A stretch of DNA of 64,000 bases from a virus, in the IMG/VR virus record IMGVR_UViG_2825807022_000004; one strand, 5' to 3'. Positions 13,256-55,081 of the stretch are shown in pieces. Position numbers and translations under genes: made by a program. The notes beneath the pieces are model-generated. The model was not told the origin of the DNA and did not search any database. It was given only the letters and a program-made list of their open reading frames with translations. Positions within the stretch are counted from its first letter, which is position 1; every line of letters begins with the position of its first letter.

Positions 13256-13317
13256 CTGTTACCTCGTTGTTACCTGTTACCCAAATTTCAAAAGTTCATA
13301 GCTAGACGCAGAACGCG

Positions 13318-13359
13318 GCGCGCAATGCCCGTGCAGTAAATAAGTCGTGGGAAGGACCC
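13318..13359 (-). promoter_or_regulatory. Putative cos site (cosQ-like GGGTCCT, predicted cosN GGCATTGCGCGC)
   Basis: GGGTCCT, 23 nt, then CACG-flanked 12-mer followed by CGCG, just upstream of terS; matches lambda cos layout. Confidence 0.65.
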
Positions 13360-15493: not shown

Positions 15494-15528
15494 GTACCAA
15501 TACCATCATATGCTGTGAATGGGCAAGC

Positions 15529-16819: not shown

Positions 16820-16822
16820 GGT

Positions 16823-17383: not shown

Positions 17384-17620
17384 TTAGCGACGCCGGTTAG
17401 ATGATGCCAGCAATACTGCGCCGTTTTTGATGGCTGCTGCCAGAGCTTCCGCAAGAATTTCATGCGGAATACCTGGCAAACGTGCAGACCAAAAGGCCCG
17501 AGTTCTCACCCAATCCATATCTCCGGCCAGTTGAGAAGTGATGGCTTGGCGAAGCTCTTTTATTAAAGCGGCTTTTTCCTCTTCTTTTTTGTATAAGGAT
17601 GCGTCCATATTTATGTCCAA
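17384..17620 (-). CDS. Hypothetical 78-aa ORF (uncertain)
   Basis: In late-operon orientation but its start overlaps the start of the + strand gene. Confidence 0.35.
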
Positions 17621-18056
17621 TATTGATAAGTTTAATGAGTTCGCAGGTCGGGTATTCGGAATACTCTATGAGGAGTTTCCCATTCCGACCAACATCAATG
17701 TAGGTGATATCCTTGGTGATCCGGATTTATACAACACCACAGGTATTCCGCCCGAAATGGCGGATGACGCTGATATAGCCGGGTACACCGTTGTCTGGTT
17801 ACGCCAATCTGGTTACCTTGATATGCTTAATCAAGATATAAGCCTAAATGAATTTTATAACGTGGTTCTAACAGCAAAGGGGTTGGAGGTACTCAAAGCA
17901 ATACCTGATAGCTTAACCCCTCGCTCATCCCCGCTTGGAACACAAATCGCAGATGCGGTTAAATCAGGTGCAAAAGAAACGGTAAGTTCCTTGGTTAACC
18001 AAGCACTATCAACTGGCATAAAGTTAGCTGCAAGCTCAGTTGGCATTGATATCTAA
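17613..18056 (+). CDS. Hypothetical protein, possible winged helix, opposite to late transcription
   Basis: Likely start MSNIDKF; [10 protein letters not shown]...[11 protein letters not shown] resembles a wHTH wing. Confidence 0.7.
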
Positions 18057-18214
18057 CGCACAAAAAAAACAAATAATTAAGCCCCGACACCAGTCAGGAC
18101 TTTTCGTTTTTGACGCCGGTTACGGTTCCGGCGTCAACACCTACCAATGTGCTGACCGCATACCTTAAAAATGCAAAAGGCCCACCGAAGTGAGCCTTAA
18201 GCTTGATTACTGAA

Positions 18215-18334
18215 TTATTTAGCAAATTTCTCAGCTTCTTCGCGAGTAGTGATGAAGCTTTCGCCAAGGCCAATCGCAATCAATATTCCTACGATATAGC
18301 CCGCCAGCTTACTGTTTAAAATCTTCTTGAACAT
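18215..18334 (-). CDS. 39-aa single-TM peptide MFKKILNSKLAGYIVGILIAIGLGESFITTREEAEKFAK
   Basis: Translated by hand; GGAGG RBS, TTTACA-16-TAGAAT upstream (18361-18388), terminator at ~18173-18198. Confidence 0.65.
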   Translation of the reverse strand: MFKKILNSKLAGYIVGILIAIGLGESFITTREEAEKFAK

Positions 18335-18474
18335 AAAACCTCCAATTTAGAGGAGTAATCATTCTATGCCCTTTTAATCATTTGTAAAATGTCGTGTATT
18401 CACCACATTCGTCTGGATACTGTTTCACAACGATTGGGTTAGCCAATCCAGTACCCATGCGAATATAGAAATGC

Positions 18475-18498
18475 AAAAAGCCCACTCGACGGTGGGCT
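18475..18498 (-). terminator. tR'-like terminator
   Basis: AGCCCAC-loop-GTGGGCT plus T-run downstream of pR'. Confidence 0.75.
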
Positions 18499-18535
18499 AT
18501 GGTAAGTGCTGAATGCAAAAACAGCAGCATATGTG

Positions 18536-18567
18536 ATAATAGTGGCTCATTGGCTCAATAATGTCAA
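18536..18567 (-). promoter_or_regulatory. Late promoter pR' with tandem TGAGC Q-binding repeats
   Basis: TTGACA TTATTGAGCCAATGAGC immediately after the Q stop. Confidence 0.75.
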
Positions 18568-18573
18568 CACGTT

Positions 18574-19062
18574 CTATGCAACTTTCTTTATTTTACCGAC
18601 ACGTTTGCGGCTAATGAAAGCATGTTGCATTGGTTGATATAACATCCATACCGCCGCAGCCAATATTTCATCCACTTCACGACGACACGTTGTCAGTGAC
18701 GGTTTTTTCATCCGATCCCCACCTCGTGTTGACATCTTGCGGGGTTTTGCAGTCGCGAAGTAGTACGATGCAATTGATCGTTTGGAAGCACCATGAGAGT
18801 AATAACTAATCAGCATCCCCAAGGCTTTTGTATCAATGTGCATAACGGAATCTACGACCTGAGAAATCAACATTCCGTCATCGTCATTGCACATCGGCCT
18901 TGATGGGCTTCCCTGCGGTTCTACTGTCGCCATGTACTGCGCTATAACGCTGCTCATGCGCTTCTCTAATCTTCCTGAGTAAACCCATGCGCCCCACAGT
19001 TCAAGCCAGCCATTAATCCAGTCATGCTGCTCTTTGGTTAGTTTTAACTGAGTTACATTCAC
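18574..19062 (-). CDS. Q: Late antiterminator Q (phage 21-type)
   Basis: 162 aa; LTKEQHDWINGWLELWGAWVYSGRLEKRMSSVIA, RPMCNDDDGMLISQVVDSVM. Confidence 0.93.
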   Translation of the reverse strand: MNVTQLKLTKEQHDWINGWLELWGAWVYSGRLEKRMSSVIAQYMATVEPQGSPSRPMCNDDDGMLISQVVDSVMHIDTKALGMLISYYSHGASKRSIASYYFATAKPRKMSTRGGDRMKKPSLTTCRREVDEILAAAVWMLYQPMQHAFISRKRVGKIKKVA

Positions 19063-19667
19063 GCTGCCTCCTGAGTTTCTTTAAGCCGCTTCAATTCCAG
19101 CCGGTAGTAATCACGAATGCCCTTTAACTCTTCAATGCTGTAACTGCTGCGTTCGTGGTTGTTTTCGATAGCCTCCACTGTCTCAATTCCAATGCGCTTA
19201 ATCAGCTCGACGCGGTACGGAACGATATTCCCGCTCTTGTGCTGATTGCATACTGAACATTGTTTATGGATTTGCCGGGGGTCGAATCTGAATTGAGGTG
19301 CTGCTGCGGTTGTTCTGTAGTGTCCAGCATCCCACTGTGCCGCTGAATGGGTACCACATGATACGCAGGGTAGGATTGAATCACGTGCTCTTACAAAGGC
19401 GTTGACGGCTTGCTGTGCCTGCTTAATCCAATACGTTTTGGGCTGGGCATTAATTCTTCTGACTTTTAGCTGCTTCCGATCCTCCTTTTCTTTCTCCCGC
19501 CTTCGCTGCTCTGCTTTCTTCAGTGCATCTTGGTGGGCATTTTGCGCTAGCTGCTTTATGTATTCCTCTTTGTGTTCCTCGTTGCACCACCACTCATAAA
19601 TCCTTTCCGGCTTGAATCTCGTTTTGCATACTTTGCAGTTACGATGGCTCGGTAGCTTGTTTATCAT
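19059..19667 (-). CDS. ninG: NinG/Rap endonuclease
   Basis: CVSCG, WDAGHYRT, IHKQCSVCNQHKSGN. Confidence 0.9.
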   Translation of the reverse strand: MINKLPSHRNCKVCKTRFKPERIYEWWCNEEHKEEYIKQLAQNAHQDALKKAEQRRREKEKEDRKQLKVRRINAQPKTYWIKQAQQAVNAFVRARDSILPCVSCGTHSAAQWDAGHYRTTAAAPQFRFDPRQIHKQCSVCNQHKSGNIVPYRVELIKRIGIETVEAIENNHERSSYSIEELKGIRDYYRLELKRLKETQEAA

Positions 19668-19776
19668 CGGCTTCCTCCTTCGCTGCTTTATCAATGCATT
19701 TCTGATGAGCGTAGGTTTCACCCTTGTTAAGCATCAGGAAGCAGAAGGTACATATTGATTGGGGGAGTTCAGGCAT
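19639..19776 (-). CDS. Small Cys-containing nin-region protein (NinF-like)
   Basis: MPELPQSICTFC...HQKC; homolog at 61364..61501. Confidence 0.55.
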   Translation of the reverse strand: MPELPQSICTFCFLMLNKGETYAHQKCIDKAAKEEADDKQATEPS

Positions 19777-20284
19777 GAATAACCTCCGGCTTTGGCAGTC
19801 CGTCATAAACTTCAGATAGGTGACCTCTGATTTGCATTCTTCGCAGTGCGCTATACATGAAATCGCATTCAGCCTGTTTGTTGGCTTTGAACGGCTTCGA
19901 TGCTGTAGAGCACCATAGAGCGTTACCGGGCCAGCCATGCACCTTGTAAACTCGTCCGTTCTTTACGTGCAATAACCCCCACCCTTGTGGTAGGTCAGCG
20001 GCGTTAATAATTCCCGGCTCACAGATAAAGAACCGCCAGTCGCCCATACCTAGCTCTGGATCAATACGAAAACGCTTTTTCTTGTCTGCCAAAAAATCAG
20101 AGCGGGAGCATTTCGCCTCAATCAAGCATGACGCCAGATTTCTAAACCCTATTGCATCGGGCTGCTCTCCAGTCGATACAGCGGCAACGAAGCGGTCATG
20201 AAATGCCACTTTGAAGCCGTTATTCCTGAGAAACTTTTCAGCTATCAGGCATAGCTCATCGTGAGTTAATGACTGTTCACTCAT
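19769..20284 (-). CDS. Putative PD-(D/E)XK nuclease (MmcB-like), only in prophage A
   Basis: QPDAIGF...LIEAKCSRSDF motif; absent at the equivalent site in B. Confidence 0.65.
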   Translation of the reverse strand: MSEQSLTHDELCLIAEKFLRNNGFKVAFHDRFVAAVSTGEQPDAIGFRNLASCLIEAKCSRSDFLADKKKRFRIDPELGMGDWRFFICEPGIINAADLPQGWGLLHVKNGRVYKVHGWPGNALWCSTASKPFKANKQAECDFMYSALRRMQIRGHLSEVYDGLPKPEVIHA

Positions 20285-20448
20285 CGCGCTCTCCTTACTC
20301 TGTCGAATTTGGCGCGCAGCAAAACGCATATGTGATCATATGTGGGTATTTCGCTGGCGGGGATTGGGGGTTTAGGCTTGGTTCGAGATGTCTTGCGGAA
20401 GATAAGATTGTCTAGGGCGAAAACTATGCTGCTTTGCCTTTGTCGCAT
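20281..20448 (-). CDS. ninE: NinE-like protein
   Basis: MRQRQSS...RTKPKPPIPASEIPTY. Confidence 0.65.
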   Translation of the reverse strand: MRQRQSSIVFALDNLIFRKTSRTKPKPPIPASEIPTYDHICVLLRAKFDRVRRAR

Positions 20449-20884
20449 GGTGTATTTCCCCACCGGTTAGCCCACTCGATTTCCAGCTTGGATGCATCGC
20501 TGAATATCACGCCCTGCTCAGTGCCGAAGCCTCGATAACCTCCACCATCTCACTCACTCGCATCTTGCTAGTACGCTGGCCGAACATCACCACCCCGCCG
20601 CCGATTCCTGGGGCTGTACGCTGATCCTGATTTTTGGCCTTAGCCACCATTGCGGTAATCAGATCTTTCCAGTCAGCTTCATCGTACTTTTCACCGAACC
20701 AGAGAACCTGTTTTGATAGGTCGTGCAAAAGTGGCCACATTTTCCGATTCTGGTCATTGCTGCGTTTCTTCTCCTGAATGAGAACCTCAATCGGCTTTTT
20801 CTCATCAAGCGGCATATTGCGGATCGCTGCTATAGCGTTGTCACGTACCTGGGTATTTCGGAGTAGATAGGTATGCTTTGTCAT
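20424..20884 (-). pseudogene. ninB: NinB, frameshifted by a 10-bp deletion near 20528
   Basis: Lacks CCAGTAGATA (plus strand) present in intact 61641..62111. Confidence 0.8.
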
Positions 20885-21306
20885 AGTGGACTCTCCGGAG
20901 CGGCGTCTAGCATATTTGCATAACGCTCTAGCATGCTTTCAAAACTTCTAGTCAATCCGAGCAGTGTGAGCATTGCTAAAGTTGGCTCAATCGGCACCAA
21001 TTTCCAACCTTCCGGTATCTCCTGAGATTTAAACTGTGGGGTGGTGTAGACGATGCGGCGTCTGGTGTGGTCGTATTGGTTATAAAATCCCTTATCGCAG
21101 TCATCCCAAACCCACTCAATGCCGTCGAACTGGTCGTTACATATCCCTGACTGATACTGATAAATCGGTTCAGCCCTCTTTGCAGCTAACGCGATTCGGG
21201 CTAGCGCCTTTAGCTCTCTAGATGGAAGCTTTACGAATGACCATGTTTCAGCATCACCAATCAAACCTTCCAGTCTCTCTACTGTGAATTGCTCTAGTTC
21301 TTTCAT
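20881..21306 (-). CDS. Ea/Eaa-type accessory protein
   Basis: FTVERLE...LARIALAAKRAEP shared with 62108..62578. Confidence 0.6.
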   Translation of the reverse strand: MKELEQFTVERLEGLIGDAETWSFVKLPSRELKALARIALAAKRAEPIYQYQSGICNDQFDGIEWVWDDCDKGFYNQYDHTRRRIVYTTPQFKSQEIPEGWKLVPIEPTLAMLTLLGLTRSFESMLERYANMLDAAPESPL

Positions 21307-33131: not shown

Positions 33132-33373
33132 AGATTAGCCTGAAAGAATGGAATGCACGACGAGACATACCGCGCTCTATGAAGCAGATATACAGGTGGG
33201 TTGAGGCTGGAAAGATATATCCCCCACCTGAAAAAATTGGTAGAGATTATGAAGTTGAATCAACCGCAACATATATAGACCCCGCCTCAACTATCAATAC
33301 CGCACCAACAAATAACAATCTGATATCAAGGATTAGAAATGGCAGCAAGAAGGCGATCCGCCGCACTGCGTGA
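33128..33373 (+). CDS. xis: Excisionase
   Basis: ISLKEWNAR...IYRWVEAGKIYPPPEKIGRDYEV; overlaps int. Confidence 0.88.
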   Translation: MKISLKEWNARRDIPRSMKQIYRWVEAGKIYPPPEKIGRDYEVESTATYIDPASTINTAPTNNNLISRIRNGSKKAIRRTA

Positions 33374-34415
33374 TTTACCAGCCAATTTGTATGTTCGAAA
33401 TGGTGGTTATTACAGCTATAAGGACCCAAGGACGGGTAAGGAGTTCGGACTTGGTCGTGACAAGCGCTTAGCAATAAATCAGGCAGTGGAAGCAAACATG
33501 CAACTTATGGATGCTGGTTCGGCAGTGAGGCTAGTTGACCGGATTAATAGTGTCGCAGTTGTCACTGTATCAGATTGGGTTAAAACTTATACAGAAGTGC
33601 TAAGTAAGCGCGGATTAAAAAGCAAGACGATCACTGGCTACTATAGCCGATTGGATGTGGTCGATGAAGTTTTCGCATCAAGGCCTATGGACAGCATTAG
33701 CACCAAAGACATTGCAACACTTCTTAACGATTATACCAATAATGGAAAGGCGGCATCTGCTAAGTTGATGCGATCATTTTTGACTGATTTTTTCAGAGAG
33801 GCAGTATCCGAGGGAATTATTCACAATAACCCCGTCGATGCAACAAAAAACCCAAAGATAGAGGTTAAGCGCGCAAGGCTGTCGCTTGACAACTTCCTAT
33901 CTATTAGGGCAGCAGCGGCTGACATGCCGGGCTGGGTTGTTGATAGTATGGATCTGGCCATAGTGACGGGGCAACGCGTGGGGGATGTTCGTAAAATGAA
34001 GTGGTCTGATATTAAGGATGATAAACTTTTCGTTGAGCAGGAAAAGACAGGAATGAGGATCATAATCCCCTTTGATGTTAAGCTAGATACCCTTTCGCTC
34101 TCGTTGCGTGATATCATCGCGCGCTGCGAAAATCGCGCAATCAAAGGCGAAACGATAATTTCGTCTGACAAAGGTGAGTCATTTGCAGATAAGACACTGA
34201 CAAAGCGATTCGCCAAAGCGAGAGATTTAGCAAACATAACATGGGAAGGAATTAACCCACCGCCATTTCATGAGATACGGAGTTTAGCTTCACGACTCTA
34301 TGAAAAGGAAATGGGTAAAGAGTTTTCTCAAAAAATCCTCGGACATAAATCCGCACAAACGACCGATAAGTATCGCGACGTTCGCGGAAGTGAATGGATC
34401 GAGATAGAGGTGTAG
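33339..34415 (+). CDS. int: Lambda-type tyrosine integrase with arm-binding domain
   Basis: N-terminal LPANLYVRNGGYYSYKDP; TGQRVGDV, FHEIRSLA, LGHKS...Y. Confidence 0.95.
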   Translation: MAARRRSAALRDLPANLYVRNGGYYSYKDPRTGKEFGLGRDKRLAINQAVEANMQLMDAGSAVRLVDRINSVAVVTVSDWVKTYTEVLSKRGLKSKTITGYYSRLDVVDEVFASRPMDSISTKDIATLLNDYTNNGKAASAKLMRSFLTDFFREAVSEGIIHNNPVDATKNPKIEVKRARLSLDNFLSIRAAAADMPGWVVDSMDLAIVTGQRVGDVRKMKWSDIKDDKLFVEQEKTGMRIIIPFDVKLDTLSLSLRDIIARCENRAIKGETIISSDKGESFADKTLTKRFAKARDLANITWEGINPPPFHEIRSLASRLYEKEMGKEFSQKILGHKSAQTTDKYRDVRGSEWIEIEV

Positions 34416-34420
34416 TGAAC

Positions 34421-34620
34421 GAATTTCGAATAATTTCGACCTGCACAGTGTAACCAGCTGATTTAATTAGAAAAAATTAAGGGGAACCTTTGCAAGGTAA
34501 AGCACCCCTTAAATCAATAAAAACATTAATAATCAATAAGTAACGTGATTTATTGCTTAATATTTATGCGACATTTCAGGACAATATGAGACATTGCTAG
34601 ACATATTAATCAATAACTTA
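34421..34620. other. attP-like junction between the two prophages
   Basis: AATTTCGA x2, IHF consensus 34451-34463, central inverted repeat ~34478-34511, GACA(T/A) x4 at 10-bp period 34570-34604, IHF consensus 34608-34620. Confidence 0.7.
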
Positions 34621-34674
34621 CCACTCCATTTTGACCTCTAAAACCACCTCGGCATCCCTGCCAAATATCACAAA

Positions 34675-35097
34675 TCACTCAGGCTTTAGTGGCCACTCAA
34701 TATCTGGCGCAGTTGAGGTATCAACGCGCATCAGCAAAATCCGATATTTCTTCCATTCAGCCAACGAGGCCGCTTCTTCTTTCGTCGCAATGCCAGTATC
34801 AACAGCATCCTGCCGCCACGCAATTTCTCCATCCGCTTCGCTTCGCAACTGCGTACGCTGAGTCTCTGCGTTTTCCTTCTGCTGCTCCGATGTTAGGGGT
34901 GGCAGGTCGATCCACACTGGACGCCCTTTAGCTGCCCCGAGCCTTTTTCCATCCGGTGGCGACACTCGCCAATATTTTTCTGTTTCTTCCTTTGTTGGCT
35001 CGAACAGATCCTTAGGAAGTGAATTCCCATAACTGCCGTCATCAACCATGTTTGCAGCGTAGAACAGAACCTGAGTGGGGCTAAAATAAGCATTCAT
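34675..35097 (-). CDS. Tail fibre assembly protein
   Basis: WRQDAVDTGIATKEE..LAEWKKYRILLMRVD...IEWP. Confidence 0.88.
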   Translation of the reverse strand: MNAYFSPTQVLFYAANMVDDGSYGNSLPKDLFEPTKEETEKYWRVSPPDGKRLGAAKGRPVWIDLPPLTSEQQKENAETQRTQLRSEADGEIAWRQDAVDTGIATKEEAASLAEWKKYRILLMRVDTSTAPDIEWPLKPE

Positions 35098-35098
35098 A

Positions 35099-35968
35099 TT
35101 AATATCCTATGGCAATCCAACGGCATGGCACTGATGAGGCTGCCGCATTGCGTAAAAAACCCTGTGCATTAAACGATAATGTCTGATGATAGATTAAACC
35201 GTGCGCCCCGGTGTCTGCCGATTGAGGGATCTGCAGCACCGTGAGACAGTCGACAGAAAATGGCGTAGGGAAGTTGACTCCCTGACCTGATGAGAAGTAG
35301 CCCCACTGAATCATCAACCCGCGAGGAACATCAGGGATACGGATGTAATCATTCGCGCTGTATGATCTCTTGGGAATAAGTGACGCGAGGCAGTCCATTG
35401 TTGCAAGAAGACTCGTACTGCCTGCTGGAATATCGTCTCGAGTCCCGACCCCCAGCAAGGCCGCTGCACCTAGCTGAAGTGCGAGTCTGAAAGCTGCCTT
35501 GTCAGGAATATCCGCACCATTTGACGCTTTAGACATTTTACTCTGGGCTTGACCAAAAGTGTATGTAACTGAATTTATAGTGGCCGCAAGTGTTGTATCT
35601 GTACTACCTACATTGTCACTCAGCCTTACTAATCCAGCATTTTTCAATGATGCTTCCTGAATACCAAGGTTTGCGAGAGTTTGTGCGACGGCGGCTTGTC
35701 CCGCATTTTTAATTTCAGACAGGTTATTGGTTGTTTTTAAAAAACCACCATCAGTGATTAATTTTGAAATGGCTGTGGTGAGTTGATTAAATTTTGTCGT
35801 GTCGGGTGTCACCCCACCAGCGACCAATACGTTGATCAATTCCCGCTGAATCGTGTTAAACCACTCCGCCGGAAAGATGGTGGGCGGTGTACCGCCAGCA
35901 ACGTTACCATCGGTAAACTCGCCGTTACTGTCCGCTCGAGTATTGGGAATATCGCCAATTTTTTGCAT
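35099..35968 (-). CDS. Tail fibre protein (short)
   Basis: FTDGNVAGG...AEWFNTIQRELINV N-terminus; NNLSEI; C-terminal GLMIQWG domain. Confidence 0.85.
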   Translation of the reverse strand: MQKIGDIPNTRADSNGEFTDGNVAGGTPPTIFPAEWFNTIQRELINVLVAGGVTPDTTKFNQLTTAISKLITDGGFLKTTNNLSEIKNAGQAAVAQTLANLGIQEASLKNAGLVRLSDNVGSTDTTLAATINSVTYTFGQAQSKMSKASNGADIPDKAAFRLALQLGAAALLGVGTRDDIPAGSTSLLATMDCLASLIPKRSYSANDYIRIPDVPRGLMIQWGYFSSGQGVNFPTPFSVDCLTVLQIPQSADTGAHGLIYHQTLSFNAQGFLRNAAASSVPCRWIAIGY

Positions 35969-41915: not shown

Positions 41916-43739
41916 TTAACCCGGGTAATTCATTGAGGTTGCTACACGCCCTCCCGACTTGCTGGTAATAATCTTACGCTCTCCACTACTGGCATCAATG
42001 AACGTCAGTTCTATCTCCGTTTTATTGCCTGCCATCGCCTGCATAATAGCGTTGGCTATATCCTGGCTACTTCCGGCGTTATCGTTACCTGAGGCTAGAA
42101 TAGAAGCTCGCTGGTCACCATTAATATTGGGTGTAGTGCTTGAATTGAAAGTCTCTTCACTTGATTGAGGATGAATCGGCGGTAAACCCGGCATGATTTT
42201 TTGTAGATAATGACGAGTTTCGGCAGGTGCTTTTTCTAAGCCATGCTTTTTGACGTTATTCTGTCCCCAGTTATAAGACGCAACAGCCTTATTGACATCA
42301 CCATCGAACATTTTAAGCAAATCAGAAAGATACTTGGCTGCGGCTTCACTTGATTTATTGAAGTCCATACGATCTTCTGTGGTATTTAATCCATAATCTC
42401 TGCCCGTTGGAGGCATAAACTGGAACGGTCCTTGTGCCCCTTTTGGCGACAGCAAATTTTTTCCCCGCCCCGACTCAGCTTGATAGACCCGATCCAGAAT
42501 GGTGGGTGGCAAATTATACTTCGATTCAAGTTGCGTCAGTCTAGCCTGCTGTTGATTTTCGCCGGGAAGCATATAGGGCGTATTGACCGGTGCTGCCGCC
42601 TTTTTCTTTTCTGCCTCCAGCCGTTTTTTTTCCTGCTCTTCCCATGCACGACCGTAATGCTCATTTAACTTTTGAGTAAAATCCTTATCGGGATAACCCA
42701 ACGTTAAATACGTTTTCTCTTTAAATGACAGCGAGTCTTTAAATTTGTCATCCACCCGCGCCCGGTGAAGAATATCTTTCTGTTTATCACCATGAGCAAA
42801 AGCGTCCGCAGTATCACCCGCGCGTTTTTTATACTCGTCAACGGAAGCCATAACCGGTGTCATGGCTTCGTTTGGCCTTAACAGTTTTTGCGCCGCCCAT
42901 GTTTTTCCTTTAACCATCAGCCCATCCATCGCCGCGCTGGCTTCATTTAACTGAGCATTCAACTCGACCAGTTGCACATTGGTTTGTGGATCAACCGTTA
43001 AGCCTAATGTATCCGATTTCGCCAGCAGTTCTTTGTACCTGACACCTTCCCGCATTAATGCTAAAAAATTAGCATCAAACCCCAAAGCATCGGCTAATGT
43101 TTTCTGGGTCTGCGGGGCAAGTTTAGGGAAGACCTTTGCCACGTTTTCCAGTGTCTTATAGACATCCGCTGTGCCATCTTTGAGACGCTCGATGACAATC
43201 CCGTTCTGAGCCAGCAATGCCTGTGTCGTGTCATTACGCGTCCACAAGGGGTCATTAAACGTCTTATATAATCCCTCTACAGATTGCCGGGCTGAATCAC
43301 TATCGATCCCTAATATCTGCATCGCGCCACTGACACGGCTAAAATTATCAACCGACATACCGGCATTTTTTGCCGCCGTATCCAGTCGATAGGCGTTACC
43401 CGCCGCCTCACCCAACCCTCTGGCTAGCCCGTTGATGACATACCCGCCAGCGGCTAAGCCGCCCAGTTTGAATGCTTTGCTGCCTAATTCCCCGACCATT
43501 TTCAGCGGTGGCACCAGGTCACCGATGTACTGGACACCTTCACGGGCAGAACGCCCCATTCCCTGAAATTTACCCTGCAGGTTATCCAGCCCTTCGACAG
43601 ACTCATTCCCGCCAAGCTGTAAACCATCACGGGTTTTATCCAACTGAGGTAGCAGGTTTTTTACTGCCTCATCGATACGCTGAATGGAGGCCGATGCCTG
43701 GTCAGTCGCGGTCAACTCAAAGTCAAAAGCGTTACCCAT
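41916..43739 (-). CDS. Tape measure protein with C-terminal lytic transglycosylase (SLT) domain, allele B
   Basis: 607 aa; AES, GAQGPFQFMP, AVASYNWG motifs; follows chaperone. Confidence 0.88.
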   Translation of the reverse strand: MGNAFDFELTATDQASASIQRIDEAVKNLLPQLDKTRDGLQLGGNESVEGLDNLQGKFQGMGRSAREGVQYIGDLVPPLKMVGELGSKAFKLGGLAAGGYVINGLARGLGEAAGNAYRLDTAAKNAGMSVDNFSRVSGAMQILGIDSDSARQSVEGLYKTFNDPLWTRNDTTQALLAQNGIVIERLKDGTADVYKTLENVAKVFPKLAPQTQKTLADALGFDANFLALMREGVRYKELLAKSDTLGLTVDPQTNVQLVELNAQLNEASAAMDGLMVKGKTWAAQKLLRPNEAMTPVMASVDEYKKRAGDTADAFAHGDKQKDILHRARVDDKFKDSLSFKEKTYLTLGYPDKDFTQKLNEHYGRAWEEQEKKRLEAEKKKAAAPVNTPYMLPGENQQQARLTQLESKYNLPPTILDRVYQAESGRGKNLLSPKGAQGPFQFMPPTGRDYGLNTTEDRMDFNKSSEAAAKYLSDLLKMFDGDVNKAVASYNWGQNNVKKHGLEKAPAETRHYLQKIMPGLPPIHPQSSEETFNSSTTPNINGDQRASILASGNDNAGSSQDIANAIMQAMAGNKTEIELTFIDASSGERKIITSKSGGRVATSMNYPG

Positions 43740-43905
43740 TTTGTTTATCTGCCCTTATTTTGTTGATCCGCTGAGCCTGCTCACACCACCATAGCAACTG
43801 GCTGTAGGTCAGGGACCACGCATCAGCTGGTCCCCATCCGTAGTAATAGGTCACATCGGCTAGTGTGTCCCGCCATCCCCCTTCGCTGGGGAGTAGGATA
43901 AAAAA
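43732..43905 (-). other. -1 frameshift extension of chaperone, allele B; slippery site 43899-43905
   Basis: -1 frame reads ...LADVTYYYGWGPADAWSLTYSQLLWW... to a stop at 43732-43734. Confidence 0.8.
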
Positions 43906-44162
43906 CTCATCATGTAGACCTCGCAGGCCTTGTAGTCGGTGAAAGCCATTTTTTTGATGGCTTCCCGTGGCACATTCGACACTAGAGAAATAAGCAACCC
44001 CATGCCGCTAAGCGAACCGTTTTTGCTTTGCTCATCGTAGAATTGCTGCACTTGTAACAGCGTCGGTTCGCTCAGTTCAATCGCTTCATAGGTGGTTTTC
44101 ATGGCTTCGTGGCCGATCGGTTTAACGAGGGTAATTGTTTTCGTGCGTTCTAATTCAGACAT
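43860..44162 (-). CDS. Tail assembly chaperone, allele B
   Basis: N-terminus identical to allele A, remainder diverged. Confidence 0.85.
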   Translation of the reverse strand: MSELERTKTITLVKPIGHEAMKTTYEAIELSEPTLLQVQQFYDEQSKNGSLSGMGLLISLVSNVPREAIKKMAFTDYKACEVYMMSFLSYSPAKGDGGTH

Positions 44163-44163
44163 A

Positions 44164-44532
44164 TTAATTCTCCGTGACCGAGCCGCCTTCCCAGCGAATA
44201 TCCGCCGTCGCTTCCGTACTGTCCACTTCCTGCGTATTCACCGACCACATGCCGCTGCCGATAATGGTTTTACCGTTCGCCAGTTCACAGATGATGCTGA
44301 CGTTGGTCTGTTCGTTAAAATCACTGATTGAGGTTCCGCCACTATCGCGGATCTGGCAGGAAATAAATGGGGCGCTGAAGGTTTCTTTATAACCGTGTAC
44401 CCCATCCATGCCGGTTAACGTCTCACGCTTGACCCGTGACGGGCTGTATTTAAACTGCCCCGCCACCATGATGGTCAGTCCGTCTACCGTGACAAAGGCG
44501 GTACCGGCCAGACGGTTTCTTGTATCACCCAT
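44164..44532 (-). CDS. Tail tube protein
   Basis: Identical to 1213..1581. Confidence 0.85.
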   Translation of the reverse strand: MGDTRNRLAGTAFVTVDGLTIMVAGQFKYSPSRVKRETLTGMDGVHGYKETFSAPFISCQIRDSGGTSISDFNEQTNVSIICELANGKTIIGSGMWSVNTQEVDSTEATADIRWEGGSVTEN

Positions 44533-44544
44533 AAAATCGATCCC

Positions 44545-46035
44545 TTATGCTGACGCCTGCAGGCGGAATTGGTTAAGAACAGCAAAAATACGTAACTGAT
44601 TAATCAGAACGCCCGTCCACAGCACATCGACCCGATTGGGGTTGCTGGCGCTCTTTTCGACAATCAGCCCTTTGGCAAAACCTTTCGCATCCTGCACATA
44701 ACCGCTAAATTCCAGCGACTGATACTGGGCAATCAACTCTGCGCGGATCACGTTGGGCGTGATAATGGCTGATCCGGGGGCGAAACGGGTACCGTCAGCA
44801 GCCAGCTTCATACGGGCAAATTTCGAGGTCACTTGAGTTCGCATATAGCGAGTAACAAACATCAGCAAAAACAGCGTTTCAATCTGCAAATAGCTGTCAT
44901 CCTCTGCGCCAAATCCGTTTTTCTGGTAGGTGGTAATGATATTCTCCACTTGCACCGTACCGTCATCGGCCACCGTGACCGTGGATATGCCGCTGTGCAG
45001 CAGGTTATTACGCTCGGTCAGAGTAAAGCGGCTGGCCAGCGGCGGAGCCAGCACACCGGCGATACTCAGCGTTTGCAACGGACGCCCCGGATCGTTACGC
45101 AAACTTTGTGCAATCGCGCCGACATAAGCCGCTGACCAGATGTAACTTGGTGTTGGCGAGCCATTCACCCCCAATAGGGAAGCATGCTGATCGTTACGTA
45201 ATTCCCCAGCCGCCGTCAGTTGGCCGTAAGTGCCCGATTGGGCGGCAAAGCTGTGACCATACAACTGTTCGGCGTAACTCCAACGACCGGTACTGTCCGA
45301 TAAAAAGTCTTTGAGTTTATTCAGAGACGCCGTATCGGTGTACGGATTGATGATGAAATCAAAGGTGCGATCCTGCAAATTAGCCAGGGCATCATCCAGT
45401 TCCGGCGCACCGGCACCGCCCGACATCGGGGTGATCGTCAGTGCCAGACTGTCCGGCGTGTTTTCCCCACCGGCACTGCCCAGATAGTTCAGGCGCACAT
45501 CAATCGCGTTGCCGTGAGCACCTTTATTTTTGGCGGTTAAGGTAATCACCCCCGCCGCCGCCGTCGCTATCACGGGTAAAGCCGTGGCCGCATTAATTGC
45601 TGCGGTCAACGCCGTGGCAATGGTGGCAACGTCATCAGTGGCCACCACCGCAATCTGCACCCGAATACCGGCGATATACAGTGAAATCGCGCCCGTAGCC
45701 GATGCCGGAGTGGTCACCGTGATTTTACCGGTTGCCGCCACCATCGCTTCTGCATCGCTCAAGGGTAAGATATAAATCTCACCGGCAATATCATTCGCCA
45801 GATACGCGGCCATTTGCCCCTGCAACATCGAACCCGCACCGCATAACCCGGCCACGGTGGCCACAGAAGAAACCAGTACCGGTAGATTGGGTGGAAGTGT
45901 GGCCGCTGCCAGCATTTGCCCGATGATTAAGGTGCGCTGCGTGGTGGTTGCCGAGTTTGCCTGCGAATTATCGAACTCGGCGAAGAAAAGCGGCGTCCGC
46001 AGGTTGTTCGGAATATGGCTAAAAGGAAGGGTCAT
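44545..46035 (-). CDS. Tail sheath protein
   Basis: Differs from copy A by four visible residues. Confidence 0.92.
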   Translation of the reverse strand: MTLPFSHIPNNLRTPLFFAEFDNSQANSATTTQRTLIIGQMLAAATLPPNLPVLVSSVATVAGLCGAGSMLQGQMAAYLANDIAGEIYILPLSDAEAMVAATGKITVTTPASATGAISLYIAGIRVQIAVVATDDVATIATALTAAINAATALPVIATAAAGVITLTAKNKGAHGNAIDVRLNYLGSAGGENTPDSLALTITPMSGGAGAPELDDALANLQDRTFDFIINPYTDTASLNKLKDFLSDSTGRWSYAEQLYGHSFAAQSGTYGQLTAAGELRNDQHASLLGVNGSPTPSYIWSAAYVGAIAQSLRNDPGRPLQTLSIAGVLAPPLASRFTLTERNNLLHSGISTVTVADDGTVQVENIITTYQKNGFGAEDDSYLQIETLFLLMFVTRYMRTQVTSKFARMKLAADGTRFAPGSAIITPNVIRAELIAQYQSLEFSGYVQDAKGFAKGLIVEKSASNPNRVDVLWTGVLINQLRIFAVLNQFRLQASA

Positions 46036-46226
46036 TATGGTTTTTTCTCCACTTGAGTGGCTTCAGGTGCGGGTTTCACTTTCGGCTCTGGAACGCACAC
46101 CACGTCACCGTCATTTAATCGGCGACGCCAAAAAGAATTGTCGGGAACCTCTGCGCCAGTTTCAGGCAAAAAGGTGCCCTTCACCGGATCGCGTACTGAG
46201 CGACCGGTTACGGGTTGTACAATCAT
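46035..46226 (-). CDS. DUF2635 / Mu gp38-like protein
   Basis: Identical to 3084..3275. Confidence 0.75.
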   Translation of the reverse strand: MIVQPVTGRSVRDPVKGTFLPETGAEVPDNSFWRRRLNDGDVVCVPEPKVKPAPEATQVEKKP

Positions 46227-46237
46227 GGAATTGACTC

Positions 46238-46777
46238 CTAAAGGTTGATAGCTACCAGCGGTTCTGGTGCGCCATCGGGCATGGCAATAGTGACGTCAAT
46301 ACCCGCCAGCGGCTCGGCATCGATAGGATAGAAATCTTCCGGGCCTTGGTAATATTCAATATCCAATTCCATCAGCAGTTGAGCCATATGCCCTTCGCCC
46401 GAGGAATCAATATCAATCGTGGAGCGTACTCGCGCGAATTGCTGAATTTTCCGCGTCAGTTCATAGCTATTAATCACCGCCCGCTCGACCTGATCGCGCA
46501 ACCGCTCTAAGGCCAGCTCCGCTTTTACCGCGCCATCATCGGCGAGTTCACTGTCAAACTCTTGCAGGCGACCAGTGATACGAACGGTAGTGATGGTATT
46601 GAACTGCGGGGCGTTACGACCCAGTGACTGTTTTTCCTCAATCAAGGTTTGGATCAGCAGTACCGGATACATCTCTTCGGTGGTTGGCCAGTCACGCGGA
46701 GAATAAACACGGTGATCTGCGTCGGTATTCCCCTGTAGAGCCGCCACCACCCGTTCTCTTACCTGAGCTGTATTCAT
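46238..46777 (-). CDS. Tail completion/terminator-like protein (intact)
   Basis: 179 aa; VYSPRDWP...YPVLLI; position before sheath. Confidence 0.7.
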   Translation of the reverse strand: MNTAQVRERVVAALQGNTDADHRVYSPRDWPTTEEMYPVLLIQTLIEEKQSLGRNAPQFNTITTVRITGRLQEFDSELADDGAVKAELALERLRDQVERAVINSYELTRKIQQFARVRSTIDIDSSGEGHMAQLLMELDIEYYQGPEDFYPIDAEPLAGIDVTIAMPDGAPEPLVAINL

Positions 46778-47121
46778 GTTTTTTTGACCTGATTAAGAAT
46801 CAGTTTACTGCCACCGTGACTATCGGGCTGAACGTCCGACACGGTGAACAGCGTATTGATGGTCACGCCACCGGCCACAGCAATAAATACCCGGTCACCC
46901 TGTTTAGGCAGCGAACGAAATTCACTGTCTCTTACGCCTAAAACCGGCTTAGTGGTATTGATGGTGCTGCCATCGTCGAGCGGTTCAATATCCTGCGTAT
47001 ACGCCCGGTCAAAGATACCGCTGACGGTGTAAGCGGCGCCACCCGCAGGCCGGTATTCAACCGGATCGCCAAATACCGAATGCAATGGCGCAAGAAGATG
47101 CTGATCCCAGTGGATGCCCAT
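46774..47121 (-). CDS. Head-tail joining protein (FII-like)
   Basis: Identical to 5060..5407. Confidence 0.6.
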   Translation of the reverse strand: MGIHWDQHLLAPLHSVFGDPVEYRPAGGAAYTVSGIFDRAYTQDIEPLDDGSTINTTKPVLGVRDSEFRSLPKQGDRVFIAVAGGVTINTLFTVSDVQPDSHGGSKLILNQVKKT

Positions 47122-47124
47122 ACG

Positions 47125-47496
47125 CTAGCCTTCCTGAGTGACGATAACGCCATTGTTAACCTGAATCATCGGCGCACCGGCTGCTTCGCGGGCAGCGGCT
47201 TGCTTTCTCAAAGCATCCAACGTAATGACAAAACCTGCATCAATCAGAGTGACCACATCGTCAAGATCATCGAGAACCAAGGTATTGCTTTCGAGATAGA
47301 GCTTGTCGTTATGCTTCACTGAACGCCCCTTAAGCACCACAACCGTGGTGCTGAGAGAGTCCGTGTCACCGGGGAATGCCTGATCTTCTCCATCAGGTGT
47401 TTCTAACTGAGTGTCAGTCCCTTCAAACTGTTCCGCAGGGATAGTTTTCTCTATCTCTACCCCTGACTCATCCGGGATCTCTTTTTGCTTCGCCAT
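47125..47496 (-). CDS. Hypothetical virion-region protein
   Basis: One residue differs from copy A (F vs L). Confidence 0.6.
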   Translation of the reverse strand: MAKQKEIPDESGVEIEKTIPAEQFEGTDTQLETPDGEDQAFPGDTDSLSTTVVVLKGRSVKHNDKLYLESNTLVLDDLDDVVTLIDAGFVITLDALRKQAAAREAAGAPMIQVNNGVIVTQEG

Positions 47497-47497
47497 C

Positions 47498-48544
47498 TCA
47501 CACCACCTTTGCGCACAGAGTGGCATTGACCCGGCTTGGAATCACCAGCGGGGAAGATTGCATCAGCAGGAAACGTTGAGCCGGATCTTCCTGAAGCCAG
47601 CTTTTCGGCGCATAGGCCATGGGACCATAGTTGAAGGCCGGATCGAGAATAGCGGCAAAGCTGCGCGTTCCCATCAAATCGGCACCGGACATAATGACCA
47701 AGCCATCAGCCAGCATCGGTTTTTCAACCCCATCAACCGGGTCAATGTACCAATCGTTATAGAGCCACAAATCAAACTGACCCCAACGGCCTTTATACAC
47801 CGCGCCTTTGCCCACGCGCGCACCGGCATCAATCTGATTGCCAAACGGGCTTAATGCCGGGAAGACGATGGCGTTGTCTTTGATGGTGGTATCCAGTCGG
47901 AACGCGCGCCATGACGAGGTGGTAAACACCAGGTCGGTCACGACTGCACCAGAGTCTTTCAGTACCTGAGTCTGCCACAACTCAATATCTTGCGAAGGCT
48001 TGTCGTTGGTTGCCCCTGCCGCAACCACCATCGGCCATTTGTCACTACCACTGAGGGCGACGGTTAACGCGGCAGAACGACCAAAATCAATCACGGTGGT
48101 GTCAAAACCTTCACCGGTGACGGTGATGGTACCGGACGCCAGCGCATTGGCGGCCATCCACTCCAGTCGGCGGTTGACCATATCGATCTGATCGGCCATT
48201 TCGAATTGCAGATTTAGCATTTCACGCTCGGCGGCGGTGTACTCGCCACCAATCCGCTCACCAATCTGGCGACGGATTGGCTTACGCAGATCAGGTGCGC
48301 GCTTATCTTTGATGTACGGCGGTTTAAAGGTATTGGTTTGCAGACGGCGACTTTCTACCAGCTTGCCCTGCACCAGCGGCGAAACGAACGGAGCCATACG
48401 ACGCTGCCCTACATCCACATCGATGGACACAAACTCGGTATCAGAGGTCACCACGTTGGGAAAGAATCGGTCGAGTAAGAAATTTTGTGAGGTTTTCAGG
48501 TTGGGGACGGTCTGCACCAACACATTGGTATCAAAAATATTCAT
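47498..48544 (-). CDS. Major capsid protein (gpE family)
   Basis: Identical to 5784..6830. Confidence 0.9.
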   Translation of the reverse strand: MNIFDTNVLVQTVPNLKTSQNFLLDRFFPNVVTSDTEFVSIDVDVGQRRMAPFVSPLVQGKLVESRRLQTNTFKPPYIKDKRAPDLRKPIRRQIGERIGGEYTAAEREMLNLQFEMADQIDMVNRRLEWMAANALASGTITVTGEGFDTTVIDFGRSAALTVALSGSDKWPMVVAAGATNDKPSQDIELWQTQVLKDSGAVVTDLVFTTSSWRAFRLDTTIKDNAIVFPALSPFGNQIDAGARVGKGAVYKGRWGQFDLWLYNDWYIDPVDGVEKPMLADGLVIMSGADLMGTRSFAAILDPAFNYGPMAYAPKSWLQEDPAQRFLLMQSSPLVIPSRVNATLCAKVV

Positions 48545-48648
48545 GAAATCTCTCTATAAAATAGCCCGACAACCTGCGCTGCCGGACGGAATGAAGGCGT
48601 GCAACGCCCTACCAAAGAAATGGCATCAGTCAATACAGACAAACAGAG

Positions 48649-49047
48649 TTAGGTATTAGACGCGGTCAGGCTGCTACGGAGGAAAATAGAATACGGACGA
48701 AGAGCCACAGCAAGATCGGCCAGCGTCCAGCTGTCATCAAAAATAACCCGATGTTGATTAAACTCGCCCATCAGATAAACCCCAGCCTGAACTGCACCAG
48801 TCGTGGCATCGGCGTCATCAACCAAAATAGCGCAAGGTACTTGACTGCCATCCGTCGCCGTTTTAACCGATTGGATATAGGCTTTAGTCGTCGTGATTTG
48901 CCCCAAAACCGTACCCCGTCGCAGAACACCCGCAGAAAGGCTGACGGTATCGGTGACCAGTTGCAGCGGCCCACTGACCAGTTGATCCGGAACAAAAACC
49001 GCCTGAGTGACGCCGGGAGTAAAACTATTCTGTCCTATCTCATTCAT
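48649..49047 (-). CDS. Head decoration protein
   Basis: Identical to 6935..7333. Confidence 0.8.
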   Translation of the reverse strand: MNEIGQNSFTPGVTQAVFVPDQLVSGPLQLVTDTVSLSAGVLRRGTVLGQITTTKAYIQSVKTATDGSQVPCAILVDDADATTGAVQAGVYLMGEFNQHRVIFDDSWTLADLAVALRPYSIFLRSSLTASNT

Positions 49048-49670
49048 GATTTTTTACCTACCGTTTGGTTATACAAACCCGTCATTTTACTGACCAGCGC
49101 CTGAGCCGAGCCGCTTGGGGCATCGGCCGCATCCTGACCCACTTGCACATTACCCAACGCCTGCATCCGCTCATCCAGAGAACGCTTGCGAGGGGTTGAT
49201 GCTGCGGGGGTCGCCGCTGAAGTTGAGGCCAGCACGCGAATAACTGCGGCAGAACTCATGCCGGAGTTCAACGCCAGTGAAGCGGCTAAATCCACGCGAC
49301 CCGCTGCATGTTTGCTGCCAAAAATCCTTGCACAGCGCTTACGCTCAGCCCGACGACCCTTTTTAACATTGCGGTCTTCGTCTTCATCATCGCCGTCATC
49401 GTCTTCCCCCTCATCCGCATCGGCGTCATCGCTGTCGTCTTCTGCATCAGGGTCTTTTTCATCCTGATCGTCATCATCGCTTTCAGCGCGACGCCCCTTG
49501 GCTTTTTTGCCGTTTTTTTCCTCGTCTTCGTTATCGTCCTGATCCTCATCATCTTCAGCATGACGGCCTTTAGCCTTCTTCGACTTTTCCTTATCCTTAT
49601 CCTCTTCATTTTCTTCAGATGCCTTGGCACCACGGCCAAACAGGTGAGAAAAACCTTTAATTTTCGCCAT
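49044..49670 (-). CDS. Probable scaffolding protein
   Basis: Identical to 7330..7956. Confidence 0.6.
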   Translation of the reverse strand: MAKIKGFSHLFGRGAKASEENEEDKDKEKSKKAKGRHAEDDEDQDDNEDEEKNGKKAKGRRAESDDDDQDEKDPDAEDDSDDADADEGEDDDGDDEDEDRNVKKGRRAERKRCARIFGSKHAAGRVDLAASLALNSGMSSAAVIRVLASTSAATPAASTPRKRSLDERMQALGNVQVGQDAADAPSGSAQALVSKMTGLYNQTVGKKS

Positions 49671-50527
49671 TACTCTTCTCCAACTTGGTTTAATAAAGCC
49701 CGGAATGCGGTATCCGGTGCGGCCACTTCATCAGCCAGCCCCAGTTGCACGCCGTCAGCGGCCAACAAGCAGGCCGCCTGAGTATCCCGAATGATTTTTT
49801 CTGCTATCCCGCGATTGCGGGCAACGGTACTGACAAATAAGCGCCCCATTTCATCAACATCAGACTGGATGGACTGCTGTGCCTCTTCACTTAACGGGGT
49901 GTAAGGGTTAGATTCAGCCTTGCGATCGCCGTAGGTAATGATGGTCACCTGTAGGCCATCGGCTTTGATACGCTGCGACCAATCCACATGCATCACAATC
50001 ACCCCCACCGACCCCACGCCACCGGTTCGCGGTACCACAATCCGGTCGGCGGCACTCGCCAGCGCGTAAGCCGCCGAATAGGCATTCTCTGACAAGATGG
50101 CCCAGATCGGCTTTTGCCCACGAGAAGCATAAATTTCATCAACCAGATCAAAACATCCGGCCACCTCACCGCCGGGCGAATCAATATCCAGGCAAATACC
50201 CTTGACGGTTTTGTCATACAGCGCCCGGAGAAAACAGGCGCGGATGCCGTCATAGCCCGTCATGCCACTGTAGGGGCGCAAACTCCCCAGTTTCTGCACC
50301 AAGGTGCCCTGAATAGGAATGATGGCAATCCCCTCAACGACGTCATAGCCGGTATCCCGGCCTTTGCGGGTAAAAACTTCATCATCGTCGTCACCCCAGT
50401 CAGTACTGGACTGAATGCGGGTCAGGCCGAATCTGTCGGTCAGCGCGGCCATCACCACTTCCGCTTTGCGCGGATGTAGCGCCAGCGGGGTATTGAACAG
50501 CCGCTGAGCCAAGTGCGGTAAATTCAC
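49670..50527 (-). CDS. S49 prohead protease
   Basis: Identical to 7956..8813. Confidence 0.9.
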   Translation of the reverse strand: MNLPHLAQRLFNTPLALHPRKAEVVMAALTDRFGLTRIQSSTDWGDDDDEVFTRKGRDTGYDVVEGIAIIPIQGTLVQKLGSLRPYSGMTGYDGIRACFLRALYDKTVKGICLDIDSPGGEVAGCFDLVDEIYASRGQKPIWAILSENAYSAAYALASAADRIVVPRTGGVGSVGVIVMHVDWSQRIKADGLQVTIITYGDRKAESNPYTPLSEEAQQSIQSDVDEMGRLFVSTVARNRGIAEKIIRDTQAACLLAADGVQLGLADEVAAPDTAFRALLNQVGEE

Positions 50528-52158
50528 GGTGCCTCCGGTTTTTGTTGTTGGTCAGGCGCAAAGGTTTCGGCTTGCAGCCAGGTGGGGATAGGTAAATCTC
50601 GTTCGATATAGGCCTGACGTTCCCGCTGGCGCTGATCCAGCAATTCTTCCCAGTCTTCGCCCACGTTTTCGGCCGCCTCCATTTCGAGGGTGGATAGCCC
50701 GGCTTCCATGCCTAGAATGGCGCCTTTCTTCTCGGCAACTGGATCGACCCAGCCGCGACCTGGCCCCATCCATTGAGCACGGCAATATGCCGCTTTAGCA
50801 GCAAGGAAATCCGGCGCACCCGCAGGTAAAGGAACCTCACCTAAATCATGCAGTTCTTCGATAAAGCACGACAAAATGGGCTGAGCCATTCCTGCGGCAA
50901 AATCATCCCGCCGACGAGTCAGGGTTTTCCACGCCTCCAGCATGGCTGAACGGGCTGAACTGTAATTCACATCAGACCAGTCCTGCGTTAACTGTTGGGT
51001 GGAAATGCCCAGCGCCGCCGCCACGTTGCGCAAAGCGGCACTTTCAAACGCCGTAAAGTTGCTGGTCGGTCTGGCCGCGTTAAGCGTGGTCATCGACTCC
51101 CCTGGTGCCAGAATGGGAATACGCGCGCCAGATTGCAGAGAAATTCGCTTCTCATCGTGAAACTCTCGACGCAGATCCTGATACTTGCTGACATCATCAT
51201 TATCCAGCGCATCGCCGACTAACTGAGGGTCATAAGGTGAGGTGATATAGGCGGCAAACACGGAATTCAGAATGGAAGCTTCCAGCTCCACCTGATCGTA
51301 CTTAATCAACATTTTCAGGCGCTGTACTATCGGGGTAAAAATACTGATGCCCCGATGTTGGGAAGCCCGCTCTGCGTCAAAATCATGAATAACAATCGGA
51401 CGTCCCCACGGCGTTTCACGGGGAATACGCTCCCAGGTCATGGTTGCCGCACCACTCCACCAGTCACCCATATGAGCCTTACGGATGTGGTAGGCCACCG
51501 GCACGCCATCTGCATCGATTTCCACGCCACCGCGAATAGTCGGCATATCAAAATTCTGCTGCGGATTACACAACCGGTCTGGGTCAACCACCTGCATCGC
51601 GGTGGCATATTGCGCCCGTCCGTAACCGAGACGATCGGGCCGATATTGCATCACGCACAGCGCATCGCCATCCGTCAGTTTGTGGCGAAAAGCCAGCCGT
51701 AACAATTGGGACACGGTTTTCTTGCGCTCGACATCGCTGTAACGCCCCGGATCGTTTGCCCAAGTACGCCACCCCGACTCTACCGCGCGACCATATTCAT
51801 CTGCCCATTTGGCATCAAAGGCTTTATTGCCGGTCATCAACGCCAGAGTGCGATAGTCCACTTTAGCCAGTGGCCGGAAATCCGCGCCAACAGCGTTATC
51901 CAGAATGCGGGTAACGCTGCCAGATGCCCAGCCATCGTTACGCACCATGTCGCGGACGCGGGAAACCACCCGGTCACGGTAAATATTGATTTCATTATCC
52001 GGCGACCACAGCGCCGGTTGCCAGTTAGCCATTGAATCGCTGAATGAATCAGCAGCGTCGTAAGGCACACCACCCGATCCGTTTAGCATGGATGCACGGG
52101 AGCGTGAGGGTGCCAGTGGGCGGCCATCCGGCCCCAATATCCTCACTTCATTTTTCAT
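50524..52158 (-). CDS. Portal protein, lambda family
   Basis: Identical to 8810..10444. Confidence 0.92.
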   Translation of the reverse strand: MKNEVRILGPDGRPLAPSRSRASMLNGSGGVPYDAADSFSDSMANWQPALWSPDNEINIYRDRVVSRVRDMVRNDGWASGSVTRILDNAVGADFRPLAKVDYRTLALMTGNKAFDAKWADEYGRAVESGWRTWANDPGRYSDVERKKTVSQLLRLAFRHKLTDGDALCVMQYRPDRLGYGRAQYATAMQVVDPDRLCNPQQNFDMPTIRGGVEIDADGVPVAYHIRKAHMGDWWSGAATMTWERIPRETPWGRPIVIHDFDAERASQHRGISIFTPIVQRLKMLIKYDQVELEASILNSVFAAYITSPYDPQLVGDALDNDDVSKYQDLRREFHDEKRISLQSGARIPILAPGESMTTLNAARPTSNFTAFESAALRNVAAALGISTQQLTQDWSDVNYSSARSAMLEAWKTLTRRRDDFAAGMAQPILSCFIEELHDLGEVPLPAGAPDFLAAKAAYCRAQWMGPGRGWVDPVAEKKGAILGMEAGLSTLEMEAAENVGEDWEELLDQRQRERQAYIERDLPIPTWLQAETFAPDQQQKPEAP

Positions 52159-52421: not shown

Positions 52422-52429
52422 AGAAATCC

Positions 52430-54977: not shown

Positions 54978-55039
54978 CTGTTACCTCGTTGTTACCTGTT
55001 ACCCAAATTTCAAAAGTTCATAGCTAGACGCAGAACGCG

Positions 55040-55081
55040 GCGCGCAATGCCCGTGCAGTAAATAAGTCGTGGGAAGGACCC
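55040..55081 (-). promoter_or_regulatory. Putative cos site, copy B
   Basis: Same sequence as 13318-13359. Confidence 0.65.

Follow-up and report, generated by a model that had tools for sequence, protein, structure and literature searches.

A predicted two-armed lambda-type attP between two related prophages in a probable tandem double lysogen

We analysed a 64,000-nucleotide stretch of viral DNA (referred to here, at its full length, as the window) and found, near its middle, a stretch of ~230 bp (34416-34640) that, judged from its sequence, is a complete, unrecombined and two-armed attP of the lambda type. The site lies between two related prophages, and it is probably the internal attP of a tandem double lysogen in which these prophages sit head to tail at one attB. 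An intact two-armed attP had been proposed in an earlier sequence-only reading of this DNA, and the proposal is now supported by a core equal to attB in 27 of 27 genomes, by one-arm joins in single lysogens, by collinearity with lambda attP, and by homologues of the lambda Int and Xis proteins. We regard the feature as an ordinary internal junction, the expected by-product of double lysogeny, and as neither a new kind of element nor a new principle. What is new, and what gives the site its main value for annotation, is the attB (the rsfS start region), the 23-bp core, and the lambda-registered subsite map for a group of Yersinia phages with integrases of the lambda Int family. This group had no close relative in the phage collection that was searched.

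Two prophages and the quality of their join

Neither host genes nor tRNAs were found in the window, which is made up of two related, non-identical prophages pointing the same way, each of them only partly inside it; the window would thus represent a tandem prophage array, not one oversized prophage. The prophages, together with the genes and packaging sites used below, are as follows (strand given where one applies).

1-34415: prophage A, from tape-measure and head genes through lysis genes, cI, xis and int
13317..13328, no strand: cos of prophage A, identical to the 12-nt cosL annotated in Serratia phage vB_SspM_BZS1
33128..33373, plus strand: xis (excisionase) of prophage A, Pfam PF07825 Exc (E 4.6e-18)
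33339..34415, plus strand: int of prophage A, encoding a tyrosine integrase of the lambda type whose N-domain is arm-binding (Pfam PF09003, PF02899, PF22022 and PF00589)
34648..34665, minus strand: terminator-like hairpin ending the late (tail) operon of prophage B, from a pattern scan only
34675..35097, minus strand: tail-fibre assembly gene (tfa), the last late gene of prophage B, Pfam PF02413 Caudo_TAP (E 2.3e-30)
34675-64000, continuing beyond the window: prophage B, with tail-fibre assembly, baseplate, head, terminase, cos and lysis genes and the start of the early region
55039..55050, no strand: cos of prophage B, identical to BZS1 cosL and lying upstream of terS, 62 bp from its start

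Prophage A ends with Dam, xis and int, and prophage B starts with genes for tail-fibre assembly, tail fibre, a Mu gp48-like protein and baseplate J. The integrase matched the lambda Int structures 5j0n and 1z1g over its full length (E ~1e-109), and all of the residues aligned to lambda R212, K235, H308, R311, H333 and Y342 were conserved. The excisionase matched the HK022 and lambda Xis structures 1pm6 and 1lx8. Prophage immunity is of the standard cI/S24 type.

Self-BLAST aligned positions 1-3560 of A with 42949-46511 of B (95.4% identity), 4792-19743 with 46506-61468 (99.9%), and 20281-20902 with 61498-62129 (92.7%); past these segments, the early regions are unrelated. An IS3-family insertion of 1.2 kb (3561-4791, with an HTH_Tnp_1 ORF at 3620-3904 and an rve ORF at 3925-4776) was present in A only, where it splits a 179-aa late gene whose counterpart in B (46238-46777) is intact. 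Positions 11413-14006 of copy A (vs. 53128-55731 in B) contained 12 mostly homopolymer-length indels in 2.6 kb, compared with only 3 substitutions in the rest of the shared 15-kb block. These indels break terminase reading frames and straddle the cos site of A. The cluster looks like unpolished long-read sequence rather than decay, and local assembly quality is doubtful.

A patch of this kind suggests a poorly supported stretch, and it would suit an assembly artefact in which only single prophages are integrated (at the same or at different loci) and the join stems from reads of excised phage DNA (circular or concatemeric), threaded into the chromosome via long repeats that are nearly identical. 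The 15-kb block shared at 99.9% identity and the lack of a tandem form in any of the 27 genus representatives described below point in the same direction. However, A and B are clearly different genomes (segments at 95% and 93%, unrelated early regions, and the IS3-family element only in A), so that the window is not one phage walked through twice, and an artefact would need the tail end of A itself to be nearly identical to that of B. Homopolymer errors, moreover, suggest long reads, which usually resolve such joins. Overall, we consider an artefact improbable, if well short of negligible, and we favour a genuine tandem array.

Window positions 34667-35779, which cover tfa and the 3' part of the tail-fibre gene, had 99% identity to parts of 115.6-kb plasmids of Yersinia ruckeri (e.g., NZ_CP098720), from which the remainder of the prophage was absent; this segment looks like a mobile host-range cassette. 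Two related tfa 3' ends (87%) were located at other loci of the nearest genome searched, G001 (G001:C1:4264325-4264408, L001; 756752-756835, L002). The rsfS site of this genome is empty, and related prophages in G001 use other attachment sites. Besides a chance miRNA hit, Rfam returned only a sub-threshold IS009 hit inside tfa (34712-34913, minus strand; 43 bits vs. a gathering threshold of 117), which is most likely explained by homology of the tfa sequence rather than by an RNA gene.

Predicted subsites in register with lambda attP

The int stop codon (34413-34415) is separated by 259 bp from the tail-fibre assembly gene of prophage B. All of the elements that the sequence-only reading had listed in this interval were present, and it is at the far end that its range (34421-34620) falls short: the site continues to ~34638 and includes a distal arm-type site beyond that range. 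The predicted subsites, in window coordinates, are listed here.

34422..34442, plus strand: tandem arm-type sites AATTTCGAAT (34422-31) and AATTTCGACCT (34432-42), in the register of lambda P'2 and P'1
34451..34463, minus strand: predicted IHF site, an exact WATCARNNNNTTR, at the position and in the orientation of lambda H'
34477..34512, no strand: outer inverted repeat TTAAGGGG...CCCCTTAA, in attP only, with both halves conserved in the arms of relatives
34481..34503, plus strand: common core GGGGAACCTTTGCAAGGTAAAGC, equal to attB and comprising the Shine-Dalgarno sequence, TTG start codon and first codons of rsfS
34531..34543, plus strand: near-consensus predicted IHF site AATCAATAAGTAA, column for column with lambda H2 TATCAATATATTA
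34568..34607, plus strand: four 10-bp GACAW units, units 1-3 at lambda X2, X1.5 and X1 and unit 4 at P2
34608..34620, plus strand: predicted IHF site at the H1 position, an exact WATCARNNNNTTR that aligns with lambda H1 AATCAACTACTTA
34627..34638, plus strand: distal arm-type site CATTTTGACCTC at the lambda P1 position, in the tail-proximal arm

Read outward from int, the predicted order is P'2-P'1-H'-core-H2-X2/X1.5/X1-P2-H1-P1. The int-proximal arm would be the counterpart of the lambda P' arm and the tail-proximal arm that of the P arm, an assignment based on the lambda register and on the orientation of ATTTYGACCT, which is as in lambda P'1 and P1.

For the comparison, lambda attP was taken from J02459 and read in int-sense orientation. 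A gapless alignment starting at the base after the int stop gave 44.7% identity over 235 bp (z 5.5), compared with 29% for shuffles and no more than 36% for any other offset or strand, and MAFFT introduced one 1-nt gap over 260 columns. The site has the same length as lambda attP (P1-H1-P2-X1-X1.5-X2/F-H2-C-O-C'-H'-P'1-P'2-P'3), and its predicted subsites follow the same order and spacing in single-base register. The Int and Xis families are also shared, the 3' end of int abuts the short arm in both, and the arm-type sites belong to one sequence family (ATTTYGAC here vs. ATAGTGAC and ATTTTGAC in lambda).

The differences from lambda concern the target, the core, some of the subsites, and the virion genes. 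The target is the rsfS start region of Yersinia, compared with the gal-bio intergenic attB of E. coli for lambda, and the common core is 23 bp long instead of 15 bp. The outer inverted repeat is an addition beyond lambda, the unit at the P2 position is more like the Xis-type units than an arm site, unlike in lambda, and a third P' site is doubtful here whereas lambda has P'3. With regard to virion genes, the prophages have a Mu-like baseplate and contractile-tail module in contrast to the lambda tail. Lambda and HK022 have closely related integrases and similar arm scaffolds with different core and attB specificities. That the site is collinear with lambda attP to the single base, although the cores are unrelated, illustrates cleanly how an arm scaffold can be conserved while target specificity changes.

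Several of the elements could be compared with junctions of related prophages in genomes G404 (Y. aleksiciae 159), G413 and G421, which are described in the next section. Arm-type repeats, distinct from the core, flank it on both sides (ATTTCGAA at 34423, ATTTCGACCT at 34433 and ATTTTGACCT at 34628), and ATTTYGAM is enriched (P ~0.0003). On the int side, AATTTCGA is found at 34422-34429 and again at 34432-34439, and this double copy with a 10-bp period is unique in the window. The longer ATTTYGACCT has 2 occurrences in the whole 64 kb (34433 and 34628), one on each side of the core and both in the same orientation. The int-side sites (34422-34442) were identical in the int-side junctions of G404 and G413 and variant in G421, and the distal site ATTTTGACCT (34628-34637), aligned with lambda P1 by MAFFT, was conserved in G404 and G413.

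The strict IHF pattern has 8 matches in 64 kb, 2 of which fall at the junction; composition-preserving shuffles of the junction gave a mean of 0.05 matches (P ~0.001). At the site starting at 34451, the consensus was kept in G404, G413 and G421 while the NNNN positions differed. The H1-position site (34608-34620) was identical in G404 and G413, and the AATCAAT of the H2-position site was conserved in the same two genomes.

The GACAW units start at 34570 (GACAT), 34580 (GACAA), 34590 (GACAT) and 34600 (GACAT), forming a four-unit periodic pattern that occurs nowhere else in the window. The GACAT pentamers are fixed and the spacers changed in the junctions of the related prophages of G404 and G413, and a comparison of three related arms likewise showed conserved pentamers with variable spacers. 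An earlier view of these repeats as arm sites needs to be revised for units 1-3, which are at the lambda Xis positions, the ACAT of units 1 and 3 coinciding in register with the ACAT of lambda X2 and X1; unit 4 does sit at the P2 position. We consider it more likely that the units represent three Xis sites and a counterpart of P2, the last assignment being uncertain given the poor fit of unit 4 to the arm-site consensus. We also considered and rejected a reading of the units as inverted copies of the int-side arm sites, as units 1-3 fall on Xis sites by the lambda register and the real distal arm site is at 34628. The int-side variant AATGTCGA in G421 lends that reading some colour.

Since the GACAT pentamers and the IHF consensus stay constant across relatives while spacers and NNNN positions vary, the junction elements exceed what chance would give. 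In these alignments, the retained pentamers, both IHF consensus sites, CCCCTTAA and the arm repeats, set against the varying spacers and NNNN positions, read as a phylogenetic footprint.

The core, its target and natural recombinants

The core was identical, at 23 of 23 bp, to the Shine-Dalgarno/start region of rsfS (ybeB) in 27/27 genomes, which are the species representatives of the genus of G001 (probably Yersinia). G001 itself has a perfect 23-bp match at an empty site, where the gene order is a nadD-like cytidylyltransferase, RsfS and an RlmH-type SPOUT methyltransferase (assigned by Pfam). A search for the core in prophage-free relatives, as the sequence-only reading had proposed, therefore ended in an exact match, and its statement that the junction is free of host DNA agrees with the finding that only the 23-bp core matches the prophage-free relative. 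We also weighed whether the junction could be plain host DNA from between genes, with repeats present by chance. We rejected this explanation as having next to no probability: the flanks of the core have no match in prophage-free relatives, phage genes are located on both sides, the arms are homologous to lambda attP, and nothing was found in its favour.

Natural recombinants of the same attP family were found in related genomes. Y. aleksiciae 159 (G404) encodes an Int that is 89% identical, and its int-side arm and core (98% to 34416-34503) lead directly into rsfS. At a distance of 40.3 kb, the nadD side is followed by the core and the tail-side arm (88% to 34481-34640). A like pair of junctions was found 46.8 kb apart in G413; across the two genomes, the int-side junctions are 98% identical to 34416-34503 and the tail-side arms 88-89% identical to 34481-34640. 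G404 and G413, both among the 27 genus representatives, carry single related prophages of 40.3 and 46.8 kb, and an int-side junction was detected in G421. The attP family recombines with attB to give one-arm junctions, as observed in these relatives (G404, G413 and G421) and not in the present copy; both arms around one core were found in 0/27 genus representatives. Searches of the junction by megablast and blastn against phage and E. coli collections returned nothing, or only lambda-like tfa/xis fragments, and the exact attP pattern was found in none of the viral and metagenome contigs. IMG/VR prophage contigs with an identical Int end at the int stop codon and hence contain no junction.

At the tail-side junction of Y. 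aleksiciae 159 (L007), the ~140 bp of host flank upstream of the core is wholly unlike the nadD-rsfS spacer of G001. Either the nadD-side neighbourhood of attB varies between species, or it holds another insert.

Identity of the relatives' junctions with the host ends at both edges of the 23 bp. Based on the register with the 7-bp overlap of lambda, strand exchange is predicted at ~34492-34498. The last core base differs between the two junctions of G413, which places the exchange to the left of that base. Because the phage core carries the same 23 bp as the target, the rsfS reading frame survives integration. Within this region, ACCTT-TGC-AAGGT (34486-34498) is enclosed by TTAAGGGG (34477-34484) and CCCCTTAA (34505-34512). 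The outer inverted repeat is centred at 34494.5, compared with 34495 for the predicted overlap, and the host-derived ACCTT-TGC-AAGGT is centred 2.5 bp off. The TTAAGGGG/CCCCTTAA repeat, which is without counterpart in lambda, may serve as an extended core-type contact.

Insertion occurs at the rsfS ribosome-binding site, upstream of rlmH and, in Y. aleksiciae 159, of other genes with the same reading direction. On a more speculative view, expression of the rsfS operon in a lysogen might therefore depend on transcription that leaves the prophage at its int end. A scan for sigma-70-like promoters across 34200-34800 found none, and an outward promoter for rsfS is therefore unsupported.

The IS-split tail gene and the apparent terminase frameshifts of prophage A could mean that parts of the array are degenerating, and the poor consensus fit of unit 4 would also agree with an inert relic, in which the arms of a decayed element no longer support Int-dependent recombination. 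Yet int and xis both have undisrupted reading frames, the catalytic residues are conserved, the core equals attB at 23/23 positions, and all of the predicted subsites except the P2-position unit keep their consensus and the lambda register and are conserved in related junctions. A relic is, in our assessment, very unlikely.

Tandem lysogeny, packaging and known systems

Since the Campbell model, it has been known that tandem lysogens can contain an internal attP, and PCR screening for such lysogens is routine. In the window, two same-orientation units, each of them partial, were found head to tail with a host-free attP between them. In window orientation, the full layout is predicted to run from nadD through core and P arm, prophage A, P' arm with core and P arm, prophage B, and P' arm with core, to rsfS. 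Such an array could have formed in two ways. A second phage may have used Int to recombine with the resident prophage at one of its two junctions, each of which keeps the core, or an incoming circle may have recombined with the resident inside the 15-kb block of 99.9% identity. The latter route would be easy given a 15-kb block with only 3 substitutions. The same direct repeats, at 15 kb and 99.9% identity, should be unstable to RecA-mediated recombination, and this counts against a tandem array. Tandem integration at a shared attB has been called the traditional view (PMC8112680), and both formation routes have been discussed for the heterotypic tandem prophages prophiT36-2a/b of Mycobacterium abscessus (PMC9934374).

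Upon induction, the internal attP and an outer junction could be recombined by Int, Xis and IHF, which could alternatively resolve an excised dimer. Recombination of this attP with outer att sites, as the sequence-only reading had suggested, is plausible by analogy with lambda genetics.

Packaging might offer a second way out. Exact 12-nt cohesive ends in each prophage indicate that both are cos phages with a lambda-type gpA terminase; vB_SspM_BZS1 was the closest phage match (~75% over terminase and portal). The distance between the cos copies is 41,722 bp, and the attP lies approximately halfway. Terminase could accordingly cut a chromosome of 41.7 kb, from the cos of B (55039) to the cos of A (13317), without excision. 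The cos-to-cos product would be a hybrid phage with the structural genes of B, this attP, and the int, early/immunity and lysis genes of A. Cos-to-cos packaging from tandem prophages is described for lambda dilysogens (PMC4669245).

A further step would be a hetero-dilysogen that still functions: prophage A, though crippled (IS-split tail gene, possibly broken terminase), would survive by means of the internal attP and the two cos sites. We hold this to be rather unlikely. If it were true, induction would release, without excision, a ready-made hybrid that combines the virion of B with the int, immunity and lysis genes of A, and the attP could act as a landing site through which the rsfS locus accretes further elements.

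Among known systems, the tandem dilysogens of lambda share with the present array the same orientation of both prophages, an intact host-free attP at the join, and a complete cos-to-cos chromosome between. They differ in being copies of one phage, whereas A and B are different mosaics, one of which has an IS, and the outer junctions of the array, like the integrase gene of B, are outside the window. The prophiT36-2a/b pair (PMC9934374) resembles what we propose here in that two different phages share one attB with a hybrid internal junction, and the routes considered are the same: either attP recombined with attL or attR through Int, or homologous recombination preceded integration. The two phages that make up that pair are released separately (PMC9934374). 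The M. abscessus system, in contrast, has a tRNA target, integration-dependent immunity and an attP inside the repressor gene, compared with the start of a protein gene as target and cI/S24 immunity in the prophages described here.
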